A stretch of DNA of 58,549 nucleotides, the filler included, from Sluysia triapertura (lineage: Eukaryota): NCBI GenBank assembly GCA_046118255.1. It is 4 parts of 4 records of this genome, joined end to end, with 100 filler letters (N's around TTAATTAATTAA, not from the genome) between each part and the next. Parts side by side here need not be neighbours in the genome. Positions count along the whole stretch, not along the records: positions 1 to 19,110 come from JBJNIA010095333.1; positions 19,211 to 32,561 come from JBJNIA010044794.1; 2 more parts are not named here. One strand, given 5' to 3'. Below, one piece after another: positions 16,133-26,890 of this stretch. The stretch's first letter is position 1. Every line of letters starts with the position of its first letter. A program made the position numbers and the translations under genes. The notes beneath the pieces are model-generated. The model saw nothing but the letters and a program-made list of their open reading frames with translations, had not been told where the DNA came from and ran no database searches.

Positions 16133-17157
16133 ATTCTAAAATTGATACAAAATTGAAATTTATTAAAATTGAAAGTATAAAATTAATCAAAAGCATCATA
16201 TTGAAACTGTTTTGTACTTATTGCAAAACAGCATCACCACTTACAAAAATGATATTTAGTGAAATTAAGGAGTACAAAATTTGTCAAAAACCATTTTTGA
16301 TGCTTTTTATTTTACGAAGTTGTTGAAATTATAAATTTTAGTTTTACCACAAATATAACGATATTGCAAAATTTTAAAGTTAATAAAAAATACATTTCTT
16401 AACATTAAACACTTTCATTTTATACTTTTTTAATAAAATAAATTTTTTACTTTTTTAAACAAAGAATGAACTTGTAATTTAGTTGTCTATTTCTGATGAG
16501 GAAAAAGAGGCTTTATTCTTTTTAATTTTTATTAAATTATTTTTATTTTGCAAAAGATTTCTCAGAATTTCTTCTAAAAGTTGTATACGCATTTCATAGC
16601 TTAAAGTTCCATTTTTAACACATGTGCTATTTCATTCATAAATGCATGACGGTTAACTTTTACGTTCAGTTGTCATTCATATATGGATGATAGAAAAAAA
16701 TTAAAAAATGCATCTAAAGTTAATACAAATATAAGAGAAATCAATTGAATCATAACTTCAACAAGAAATTTCCTACAAATAAACATATCACCACGTAGCA
16801 ACTTTGTCATATGTCACCGAATAGTGCTTGGCACGCAATGTGTTAATTATTTAATCTAAGTTTACAAAACTTATCAACTTTTGCCTTTACATGTTTCTTC
16901 TATTTTTGATTTTTAAATGGCTACAAAAAGCAATGTATGTCAATAAAGATTGTCAATGTTTTGAAATTGGTTGTATTTGTAATTTTTTGCCTATTTTTGC
17001 CTATTGATTTTTGAAATAATAAAATATCTTTTAACTTCTTCATGACATGCAATTCCTTTTCAAAATCTCTTAAACAATCATGTAATTTAAATTTTGTTTT
17101 TATTGTTTTTATTCCTTCTGCTTTTGATCACTGTATATTTTGCATCATGCATAAATT

Positions 17158-17523
17158 TTAATCATTTCTTGAGAGTGAATAAGATAAGTCCTTTTCACGG
17201 ATCAAATCCAACAAAGAAACTAATTCGAAGGCCATCCATGAGCAGGTCATACGGGGCGGTACAGGATATAAAAGTCGAAAAATCTGCCGTCCTCGCAATA
17301 TTGCATCTGAAGTAGTGTAGGACAGAAGGTTATGGTTAATTAGATTAATAACCCCCTTAAGCCAACCAAAAGGCAAATCAAGATTTTTAATAATAAGACA
17401 TCGGTTTAAAGACACCACGATTTTGTCATGTAGATGTCTCAACAAAGATATCCTTAGCCTCAGAGATATCTGAATCCTTAATCTCCTGAATGGCAGAACC
17501 GTTACATATGGTAAATTATGCAA
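17158..17523 (-). pseudogene. Distal accessory ORF fragment of the element, unknown function
   Basis: 121-aa ORF with higher GC than its flanks, on the same strand and directly after the other accessory ORFs. No motif recognised. Confidence 0.3.
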
Positions 17524-17539
17524 TATGTATCGGTAAAAT

Positions 17540-18474
17540 TTATATAAAGAAATGGGCTCTATGCCCTATGAACAGGTAAAATTTTGGTATAATGAAGTTA
17601 ATTATTAATGTTACGAGTAATATTATTATTAAAATATAATTAACAATTACAATGAAATTACTGTTGGATTCTATTATTGATAGACATTTAGCATTTATCA
17701 TACTTCAAACTTATATTTGTGTTTGTAACGTAAGACTGATATTTGTATATGTACTATGAGATGCATTTACGGAATTGTTATAGGTCTTAAATTTCTTTGC
17801 TGGTTTTACATCTAAGTCATTTTCATATTTATCGATAATAGGTATTCGCACATATTTTCTAATCATTGCCAAAATCCAGTTGTGTTATGTAATTCTGTTT
17901 TTATTATCCAAATTTTATTAAACACAAGTTTACTGCTCGGAAGATGATATAAGTAAATAGTGTTATTCAATACTAATCCATAATGTAAACCATCAGATAA
18001 GTCATAAGCAATTATTAAAGTATGATCGTATAATGGATTATTAATACGTACAATATTTCCAAGATATTGGTGAATGGTCATTAAGAGTTGCTGAAAAACG
18101 AATGGTGTGATTCTTATTTTGTAATATCATGCTAAAATAATTTTGGAGTCACTCTTAGAATCATTCCAGTTCTATAGTGAACGTTACGTTAACTAGTTGG
18201 TATTCAACAAGGTCAGTACAGGATATAAACCAATAAAAATCTTGTTTGCTCGCCTTTGTTTCCATTTGAAACCAGTTCATTATACAGCATCTTAATTGAA
18301 CATAAAGTAAATTAATTTTATTTACTAATATAGTGGCGTTAATGTCTTTTGACTTAATGTTAAGGATATTTGAGGCGTAATGTCTTTTGGTATTAAATCT
18401 GTTGCACCACTACCTGCACTAGACACGCAAGATAGGTATATACATATCAAAATCGTCGATTTTACTTGAGTCAT
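17540..18474 (-). pseudogene. Accessory membrane protein B (signal peptide, ectodomain, TM), broken
   Basis: Starts MTQVKSTILICIYLSCVSSA (signal-like), includes ORF 17863-18081 with N-x-T sequons, and ends in hydrophobic FIVIVNYILIIILLVTLIINFIIPK at ~17585-17655. Confidence 0.4.
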
Positions 18475-23739: not shown

Positions 23740-24244
23740 AGTATATTTCTTCTTAGGATTAATATTATTCTTAATTTATTCTTAACAAATCAAATAATAA
23801 ACACTTATAAACAATTTAGCTTAATAACAGTAAACTTAATCAATCAAAACTTTAAATTACTTTATCAACTTATAAACTTCAAATTAAACTTTAATCAAAA
23901 CTTAATCATAACTTATTAGTGAAACAAGACAATGAAAACTTTTAGCAATCAAATAAACTTATCAAACACTTAATCGAACAAATATAACTAATTCAATTAA
24001 AACTTTATCAAATAAACTTAAATACTTAAATTAACTTAGAAGCTTATAACAAAATAGCTTATCAAAAACTTAATATGCTTAGAGTGGTCACAATTCGGGT
24101 GACAAAATTCACTGCAAATTATCTGAAAAGTCGGTGTGCTTAATATATACGCTTTATACCACTACTGGAGACGTACTATTAGGTTTTCTTAATTCGATTG
24201 AACTTAACTACCTTTTCACTTTAACTTTAATATCAATTACTTTA

Positions 24245-24566
24245 TGTTACAATCCTTTGCTAGGTGTTGTTTAAAATTTTATATTTTACAAATTACGCAA
24301 CCCGTAATCGGGTGTTGCTTTGAAAATGTATTAGTATTTTAAAAAATTACGCAACCCGTGTTAAGGTGTTGCTTTGCAAAACGGATTTTAAGTTAATAAT
24401 AAAAGAAGCTTAAAATTCTTCAGGCATATTACAGCACAAAATATAAAACTTACAAAAAATGACTTATAATAAAAATAAGATTTTAGTTCAATCACTCAAT
24501 TATTAATTGGCAGTTTTGTATTTTAGAATTATTTTCCGCAACCCGTATTAAGGTGTTGCATCAAAA
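24245..24566. repeat. Four copies of an imperfect palindrome GCAACCCGT-N-GGTGTTGC upstream of gag; possible LTR or enhancer repeats
   Basis: Copies at ~24291-24325, 24345-24378 and 24537-24565, plus a degenerate one at ~24247-24275. Confidence 0.7.
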
Positions 24567-26890
24567 ATAAAATCAGTTTACGTATATTTTAGGTTTCCTT
24601 TCTTAAAGTGAAACCGTGTAAACTTATAACAATAATAATTACTTGTTGTGCATGGAATTTAAAATGATAATATTCTTCAAATAAAAGTTTCTTCTGGAAC
24701 GATAAAATTTTGTTGATCATCAAAAACTTGTTCTGAAGTGTTGTCAAAATTTTTATGTTAAAACTCACCTATTTATATCTAATTTATTTTAAGATGTCTT
24801 CCGATAAAATAAATTAACACGTTTAAACAAATTTGATTTCATATTTTATTTTAATTTCTTAATTTTCTAATTTTAAATTTTATTAATTTTAATTCCATTA
24901 ATTTTATTTTAATTTATTTAATTTCTTATTAAATTAATTTCAATTTCAAAAATTTTATATTTTAAATATTTAATTTAGTAATATATTCATAATTATATTT
25001 AATATAATAATAAATATTTAATAAAAATGAAAATACATAATAAATACATTACATGAATTCTTTATACTTGACTTCTTAAACCTAACACATTTAGTAATTT
25101 TTATTACCATATAAAACCGTTATAAAAATCAAAATAACTAAATATTAATTAATAAAATTAATATTTTTAACTACTTTTATAATTTGTATACCACTATAAA
25201 AATGGTATATTTGACGTATTACATATTTTATAATCATGTATTTAATGTACTATATTATTACTAAAGACTAACATTTAATAAATTTATACTTTATATCGTA
25301 CTAAAATCAATTATTCAAAATTTACAGATAAATTAGAGTGAGTCAATATGAACAAATTAATAATTTTTATTGAAATCAATTTTCCTGTATTGTGTGTTAT
25401 ATCTTATACAGTTTTTTATTATATATTTCTGACATTTATTGATTTAGTTTACAATTAACTCATATTTGTATCATTATTTTATAGTTTAGTTTGAATATAA
25501 TATTCGGTCTTTATTAATAATTAAATATAATCTCAAAAAACGTGCTTTTCATTGTTATAAAACTTAAATAGCCGGATTAACACTTTATAGTAGTTACTAC
25601 ACTTATTCACTAAATTATAATAAGCTACGTGTTAAGAAAGATCTAATTAATTTACAGAGTTAGTAAAATTATAAGTAAGGAACCTCCAGAATTTATTTAT
25701 CTTTAAAGCTACAAAAAATCTATGTGCTCGCCCTTAAATGAATAAGCCCAGTATCATAGAGGACTCACATTAAAAGAGGTCGTACTTTAAATACATTTTC
25801 ATAACCAAAATTTCTACAATATTCTAAAGTGGTATTTTTGTTGTGGTTAGTTGGTTTGTATTTTATTATACTTATTTTGTTAAATACGCGCATTAACGTA
25901 TTATGTGCTGTGTCATTCCTGGATTTTTTGTTAATTCATTGTGTAAAGACATTAATTTATAACAGAGAATTTGTATTTATTCTGAGTATTTATTTGTATT
26001 TATTCTGAGTATTTATTTGTATTTATTCATTCTTTAATTAAAATAAATGAATAATTTGTATCTATTTTCTGACAATTATATCGATATTCCAAATTAAATA
26101 CTAACTTAAATATTGAGTTAATGTTAATAATTTCAAATAACAACACAATAAATATAATACTAGTTCATAATTAATAAAAACGTTTAACTTGTTTAATTCA
26201 TCAACATAGCTCCTTGAAGTTGTAAAAAGAATAATGCTCATTTAATAACTCCAAAAGTTAATAGTAAAATCTTCAAAATAAATTTATCAATAATTTAATT
26301 CAAAATGAAAGATATCGATGAATCATCAACAAGAAAATAATTTCACTTTGGAAAATGATATACTCAGATTTTAGTAATTTATCCGCATGCTTATATAAAT
26401 GTAGTTCTGAAAAACGAAAGTGATTCTTTGAATATTCAAAGTTGAATATTTAGTATTAATAAAAATGTACCGCATAAAATGAATGAAGCAAAAAAACAAA
26501 ATGACTATGCAAAATTAGAATATTATGTTTGTTTTTATGTAGGGTATGATAAAACCAGACTCGATTATGTATATCAAATATTTTATGAGAATAATCATTT
26601 ATTTTATATATAATTTAGTAAAATTGTCAAAATATATTAAAATTGTTTTAACTAATAATTGTACGTCATCAATTTTAAGGTTATTTAACTTTGTTTTGAA
26701 ATATATTTAAATTACATAAATTTGAATTGTTTTTCTAAGTCACATGCCAATTTTATCTATATTTTATACATTATAATGTATTTTTTAAGGGTTATGCATG
26801 TTTCATAATAAACTTTTGAAAATATATTTTGATTTTAATAATAGTTTTAAATTATAAAGAATATTTTATCATTCTTTTGTGCTACTCAAC

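Follow-up and report, generated by a model that had tools for sequence, protein, structure and literature searches.

We analysed a window of 58,549 nucleotides (nt), filler included, from the genome of Sluysia triapertura (assembly GCA_046118255.1). The window is joined from contigs through three identical 100-base spacers (19111-19210, 32562-32661 and 45267-45366) that stand for gaps of unknown true size; each is made of 44 N, a 12-mer with stops in all frames and another 44 N, and the 12-mer occurs three times in the window. The surrounding genome is that of an animal and A+T-rich, with a G+C content of ~15-31% along the window. A degenerate block on the minus strand is flanked by a ROCK-like kinase gene on its left and, on its right, by a CDP-alcohol phosphatidyltransferase gene. 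It reads as a likely Gag followed by a likely Bcl-2-like domain and then by a viral-type envelope glycoprotein (Env), and we take it to be most likely a decayed copy of a retroelement related to the planarian element Burro. Its parts, in the order in which the minus strand is read, are the following.

23741-24670, minus strand: long non-coding 5' leader with three related repeats of ~43 nt, delimited by the pile-up of sister contigs
23150-23739, minus strand: Gag capsid-like region with frame changes and stops (PF03732; pieces in three frames)
22700-23130, minus strand: Asn/Arg-rich, nucleocapsid-like stretch with half a zinc knuckle at its end (translation)
22194-22700, minus strand: low-complexity charged linker (translation; no Pfam family)
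21700-22100, minus strand: predicted helical region (single-sequence model; sister contigs)
21390-21420, minus strand: AT-hook-like motif (21411-21417) after an acidic stretch, reached in 10 of 1000 Markov simulations
20930-21290, minus strand: likely Bcl-2-like domain of ~120 residues with one frame change (PF00452, A1 in the PDB, BH2-like motif)
19211-20860, minus strand: Env, a decayed class III fusion glycoprotein of the gB/Monjiviricetes type (PF24664)
19111-19210, no strand: assembly spacer of unknown true length, which cuts env

Decayed coding DNA of an abundant repeat family

Stop-free pieces on the minus strand follow on from one another through the three frames from ~23740 down to 19211, with many breaks in the translation, and over this interval the strand is A-rich (A 0.40-0.49 and T 0.22-0.28 in the bins of 19001-23500). 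In the middle block the minus-strand stop-free stretches of at least 80 residues sum to 594 residues, a value matched in none of 500 simulations, and the surplus of such stretches over the whole block was reached in none of 300. Because this surplus far exceeds simulation, the block is decayed, intron-less coding DNA of the minus strand. Its readable pieces hop through all three frames, in keeping with an initial annotation of the sequence, which described a decayed copy whose domains are split by stops and frameshifts; with so many stops and frame changes the copy as read cannot be functional. The same annotation saw a single intron-less chain on the minus strand from gag to accessory membrane proteins. 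From gag through the half-knuckle, the linker, the AT-hook-like motif and the likely Bcl-2-like domain to env that chain is upheld, whereas its continuity across the spacer at 19111-19210 is not.

The sister contigs come from one public sequencing run (share 0.36), and their summed depth is not a copy number. The expected multitude of sister copies is borne out by 10,716 contig records on 19211-27000, of which 8,432 are less than 95% alike. In each bin of 19211-23630, also over the helical and Bcl-2 parts, the summed depth amounts to 21,000-213,000; it is 58-85 in the last three bins of the flank, where one long identical contig lies, and no bin of 19211-23630 is so low. Variant positions at 21574-22040 are backed by 24-49 contigs each, similar to gag and env. 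Because divergent sister contigs cover the whole block, its middle included, the gag-env block is an abundant repeat family with many divergent copies and not a lone join. A chimeric join inside gag-env is rejected on the continuous sister coverage.

A mosaic of nested or mis-joined repeats, in which gag, middle block, env and post-spacer frames would not belong to one element, is highly improbable as an account of the whole region. An artificial spacer does divide the region, no long contig crosses the block, and beyond the spacer (19110-17100) the strand skew is 0.06 against 0.26 in the element, at the same G+C content, with uneven sister coverage that comes near flank level at 17712-18187. 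Over 19211-23740, however, there is a single strand, a continuous A-rich skew, a near-continuous reading from gag to env and gapless sister coverage, and the order of the parts fits a known family. For the post-spacer part alone a mosaic is quite plausible, with about even chances.

An envelope glycoprotein resembling those of Schmidtea elements

The family assignment of Env, made at the level of sequence, is firm. Read as whole frames with X at the stops, env matches PF24664 above its cut-off (E 1.4e-11 and 4.4e-11), and the separate pieces are colinear on the profile (18-84, 103-179, 409-466 and 464-514 of 653). The match spans profile positions 18-544 of 653, after which the spacer (19111-19210) cuts env before the membrane anchor; it is there that the rest of env would be situated, and possibly pol as well. 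The earlier description of this protein as a chuvirus-type Env needs widening, since PF24664 is a Monjiviricetes-wide family. The motifs of the copy are of Schmidtea rather than insect type.

These motifs were compared by eye in an alignment of at least 214 env rows (PMC13524379, supplement 2). The terminal motif TNYxG occurs in six rows, all of them Schmidtea errantiviruses, the other 11 of the 17 TNY occurrences standing in other contexts. The N-terminal motif [VI]YQE, which accounts for six of the 11 YQE occurrences, is found in the same six rows. At the place of TNYxG, TEHP is usual in the insect rows (90 occurrences, nine of them inspected). The env of the copy contains both [VI]YQE and TNYxG in the same order and, by eye, at similar spacing; exact longer env motifs had no match in the supplement. 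Because the two motifs are common to both, the env groups with the Schmidtea elements, and it appears closer to GAG-ENV-POL elements of this genus than to the insect chuvirus-derived ones. Capture from an insect chuvirus as the closest source is rejected on the env motifs.

GAG-ENV-POL errantiviruses with a gB-type env are described for Platyhelminthes, Nematoda and Bryozoa in the cited passages of PMC13524379. With the C1a elements of Schmidtea mediterranea in that source the copy shares an env upstream of the place of pol and the two env motifs; those elements are intact and 14.5-18 kb long, whereas the copy is broken and its pol is not seen. Jingchuvirales glycoproteins have also been captured by arthropod Pao/Gypsy elements, according to the passages cited from PMC10084718, and they fall into the same broad class III, PF24664-like family. 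The insect C1 envs of PMC13524379 differ from the env of the copy in carrying TEHP instead of TNYxG, and in gene order and extra modules.

The likely Gag and the 5' leader

At 23630-23268 the best and sole Pfam family is PF03732 (E 0.0018, under the curated cut-off), and Gag is the likely identity of this region. Motifs were evaluated against 1000 Markov simulations, with patterns picked after the sequence had been seen. The half-knuckle near 22730 was attained in 14 of the 1000, and no complete CCHC knuckle was found in the Asn/Arg-rich stretch of this decayed copy. The placement of the element in Ty3/Gypsy derives from the gag type and the env context only.

The repeats of the leader (family D16) lie within 24262-24567, two of them 54 nt apart, and may possibly be packaging or promoter elements. 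Sister contigs are dense up to ~24670 and thinner beyond. Self-blastn gave the leader no match at the 3' side, no long terminal repeat (LTR) partner was found for it, and its predicted RNA folding is modest (z -2.0). Elsewhere in the window, a 73-nt stretch at 30879-30950 matches leader positions 24115-24187 at 81%, and is perhaps a scrap of another copy.

A likely Bcl-2-like domain directly before env

A Bcl-2 identity for the domain at 20930-21290 is favoured mostly because its position, directly before env, matches that of BCL2 in Burro, and we hold this identity to be very probable. Three weak signals concur with it. Pfam matches the C-terminal 30-35 residues to PF00452 (E 0.065-0.17; 13-14 bits against a cut-off of 31.4 bits), with a P of ~3-7e-6 if this one family is named in advance. 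When the domain is read through its break with X, a PDB search finds the Bcl-2-related protein A1 (E 3.1) in a colinear match over query residues 35-122 (88 residues); with the first piece omitted, none of the 13 PDB matches was to Bcl-2. A BH2-like W-x-GGW motif stands at the C-terminal end of the domain (20966), aligned to PF00452 positions 64/72-100, and arose in none of the 1000 Markov simulations.

No hydrophobic tail follows the domain, the hydropathy scan showing no transmembrane segment. Relatives of its C-terminal piece were not scored among 121 candidates, all longer proteins, which is a weak negative. Several sister contigs show length differences at the break that splits the Bcl-2 candidate, and because of this variation the break is not family-wide.

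The helical region is not a recognizable pair of death effector domains

The initial annotation had read the helical region between the linker and the AT-hook-like motif as a pair of FLIP-like death effector domains (DEDs), and this reading found no support. None of the six pieces or frames that span the region matched a death-fold family in Pfam, phmmer against the PDB returned no sequence match at E<=10, and RxDL, a hallmark of DEDs, had no match in the six frames of 19211-23800. A DED has ~80 residues, and the helical stretch, at ~130-150 residues, is short for two. A single-sequence model has six helices at a mean predicted local distance difference test score (pLDDT) of 42, too poor to judge the fold. 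With a model of this quality the structure searches do not count as evidence of absence: the best Foldseek match in the PDB had an E of 3.9, VIA-align reached a best Z of 5.5 with no death-fold entry in its best 50 rows, and the Atlas gave no usable match. We regard the helical region as a lineage-specific segment.

These results bear on the proposal that the copy represents a new complex and possibly infectious lineage, in which vFLIP-like tandem DEDs and a vBcl-2 would block both death pathways. The helical region is indeed derived from coding DNA, is common to sister copies and is predicted, at low confidence, to form six helices; Burro-type relatives accumulate apoptosis modules; and in the literature searched, gypsy, gag and death effector domain were not found together, though the supplements of the original Burro papers may already record this family, or else an AT-hook or a death-fold domain. 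The missing Pfam, PDB and RxDL matches and the short length speak against the proposal, as does the prior publication of a Bcl-2 and env layout, and we regard it as very unlikely.

The copy may also be compared with viruses. Bcl-2 and vFLIP proteins occur in herpes- and poxviruses. The likely Bcl-2-like domain of the copy resembles the viral Bcl-2 proteins in being carried by a virus-like element, with a similar proposed role. It differs from them in lying inside a Gag-type polyprotein without a membrane tail, and the DEDs that would parallel vFLIP are unsupported.

A probable relationship to Burro

In planarians, Burro (GYPSM1) elements form giant LTR retrotransposons of a Gypsy-like kind that number thousands of copies, as summarised in section 7 of PMC6431247, which draws on Grohme et al. 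2018 and Jurka 2007. According to the same section, a single polyprotein contains retrotrans_gag with knuckles, further domains, a BCL2-like domain, env and then protease, reverse transcriptase, RNase H and integrase (PR-RT-RH-IN); BIR and ankyrin domains are also present, the env matches mononegavirus fusion glycoproteins, and decayed Burro fragments with stops and frameshifts occur in Dugesia japonica. The cited passages of PMC13465017 describe Burro as expanded in land and freshwater planarians, and those of PMC8532177 and PMC11410931 as abundant and active. A gag-BCL2-env layout is thus already known from planarian Burro, as far as the cited section of PMC6431247 describes it, and the novelty that had been claimed for a Gypsy-type element with a Bcl-2 module falls away. 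Among the listed matches of a literature search on Bcl-2 or apoptosis genes captured by gag-env LTR retrotransposons, only the Burro review was on topic, judged by title; Bcl, Burro and apopto- do not occur in the main text of PMC13524379.

The copy resembles Burro in its N-terminal Retrotrans_gag, its charged middle, its likely BCL2-like domain directly before env, its high abundance and its decayed copies, and in an env downstream of gag that is kin to mononegavirus fusion glycoproteins. It departs from Burro in having half a knuckle where Burro has two or three CCHC knuckles, in showing no PR-RT-RH-IN after env, where the spacer intervenes, and no LTR pair, and in the membrane-protein-like frames past the spacer. 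On balance, we consider it likely that the block represents one decayed copy of a retroelement that is abundant and bears an env, probably a Ty3/Gypsy relative of Burro, with a likely Gag, a likely Bcl-2-like domain and a class III Env. A compact, divergent Burro-like element is the most likely form of this relationship, and formal membership in Burro is probable, as is a planarian host.

A number of observations weigh against this interpretation. The Bcl-2-like domain never attains the Pfam cut-off, unrelated Pfam families score equally well or better on its pieces, and A1 is the weakest of the 14 PDB matches. The frame comprising the helical region together with the Bcl-2 end has no relative among 1.84 billion representatives at E<=0.001, and the env stretch had no scored protein relative among 916 candidates, both being weak negatives. 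Gag to env takes only ~1,000 codons, unlike in Burro, and Pfam found none of the MATH, SUMO-like, BIR and ankyrin domains of Burro in this fragmentary copy. The likeness to Burro is drawn from the published description. No motif or Pfam match to pol (reverse transcriptase, protease or integrase) was found in the window, where env is cut by the spacer, and no LTR pair, with ~7.5 kb of the element assembled here; pol probably lies in the spacer or was lost from the copy. The Bcl-2/env junction is spanned by single contigs only, among the sister contigs listed none has the length needed to display the complete gene order of a further copy, and the run that yielded the sister contigs may be the source sample. 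The BH1 signature NWGR is not retained in the copy. Divergent viral members of the Bcl-2 family likewise lack it, and its absence lowers the case for a canonical Bcl-2 and not that for a Bcl-2 fold. The Bcl-2-like domain of the initial annotation is kept as likely for its position, its BH2-like motif and its weak Pfam and PDB matches, and qualified by scores under cut-off and the loss of BH1.

The same facts could be accommodated by an ordinary GAG-ENV-POL errantivirus with a long, lineage-specific linker between gag and env, in which the likeness to Bcl-2 is due to chance and no anti-apoptosis module exists. Scores that all stay under the cut-off with unrelated families ranking alongside, a middle block devoid of relatives in so large a collection, and motif tests picked after the fact are what such an element might give. 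The candidate domain nevertheless occupies the position of BCL2 in Burro, its Pfam and PDB signals concur in family and register, and the env groups with Schmidtea elements, and an ordinary errantivirus is in our estimate unlikely.

Possible roles in cell survival and spread

By analogy with Burro, active relatives of the copy would be transcribed from the leader into an A-rich RNA encoding a long Gag-linker-Bcl2-Env(-Pol) polyprotein. The protease of the element might cut this polyprotein into capsid, a soluble, tail-less Bcl-2-like protein and Env. The Bcl-2-like protein could then bind pro-death partners of the Bcl-2 family and dampen mitochondrial apoptosis, so that cells expressing or newly receiving the element would be kept alive, while the class III Env might mediate fusion of particles with neighbouring or germ-line cells and hence spread from cell to cell.

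Interference with apoptosis has already been proposed for Burro in the cited section of PMC6431247. The passages cited from PMC13465017, with reference to Lee et al. 2026, report that the IAP region of Burro1 shields stem cells from caspase-mediated death; in these passages function is assigned to the IAP region only. Of the suppression of host cell death suggested in the initial annotation, the part built on FLIP-like DEDs is unsupported. In the sources cited, Burro is the only Gypsy retrotransposon described as carrying apoptosis regulators, and its Burro1 IAP is reported to aid stem cells and regeneration. The retention of Bcl-2 and env in the copy without the other modules of Burro1 suggests that Bcl-2 beside env is an old, conserved core of the lineage. 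The copy would therefore be not a new kind of element but a second system in which to ask whether the Bcl-2 domain is itself anti-apoptotic.

One may speculate further about a compact, abundant Burro-related lineage that has neither IAP module nor pol, and that would combine Bcl-2 with a divergent death-fold adaptor and with membrane glycoprotein genes of its own after env. We consider this quite unlikely. If true, the element would bear an env, be non-autonomous and spread by sparing the stem cells of its host through two death pathways.

The region beyond the spacer

Three further features on the minus strand follow past the spacer.

18430-19110, minus strand: predicted membrane protein frame or frames with a Cys-rich part, a transmembrane segment and a PPxY tail (hydropathy; PPIY at 18534)
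17560-18430, minus strand: second set of decayed frames, glycosylated-membrane-protein-like, with a hydrophobic segment at ~17650 (translation, hydropathy)
17100-17560, minus strand: repeated stretch on the 3' side (variants at 17269-17402 in 8-30 contigs)

Long stop-free stretches (at least 80 residues) on the minus strand of 19110-17100 sum to 699 residues, which none of 500 simulations reached. The first feature is repeated in the genome, with variants at 18508-19034 in 17-51 contigs each; no Pfam match reached its cut-off there, and the second feature matched no Pfam family. The third is possibly an LTR or a remnant of the 3' end, and has no partner in the window, the 5' leader included. 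Sister coverage is high at 18426-19110 and intermediate at 17236-17711. Contigs of the two sides of the spacer were mapped separately, so that none bridges it, and the attribution of the downstream membrane-protein frames to the gag-env block is unproven. Chances are near even between another repeat and a variable accessory region at the 3' side, in which case pol would have been lost in the gap.

At 18643-18969, on the minus strand, the cysteine spacing looks saposin-like by eye, a likeness that has no support from Pfam, PDB sequence, the Atlas or the model. The model of this Cys-rich frame is poor (pLDDT 38), and the frame had no Foldseek match in BFVD, no PDB sequence match and no Atlas match.

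Neighbouring genes and other features of the window

No transfer RNA was found in the window and Rfam gave no match; no related loci were found in IMG/VR or in JGI metagenomes. The gene on the left (6826-16132, plus strand) is a divergent ROCK-like kinase gene whose kinase exons are 38-41% identical to ROCK homologues; it also has a coiled-coil exon of 483 codons and, by eye, a PH-like exon, and in a length-filtered search its best matches (40-46%) were to ROCK/MRCK. A separate, extremely abundant repeat occupies ~13700-14600 in an intron of this gene, and an 89-nt piece of it recurs at 32716-32804. On the right, exons of a phosphatidylinositol synthase-like CDP-alcohol phosphatidyltransferase (PF01066) lie at 26950-27287 on the plus strand. 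The window also holds a 229-codon open frame with a weak match to TMEM126 (29820-30506, minus strand; E 0.01), a fragment with a weak match to exostosin GT47 (3276-3563, minus strand; E 0.0003) and an immunoglobulin V-set-like exon (46195-46527, plus strand; E 0.0003).

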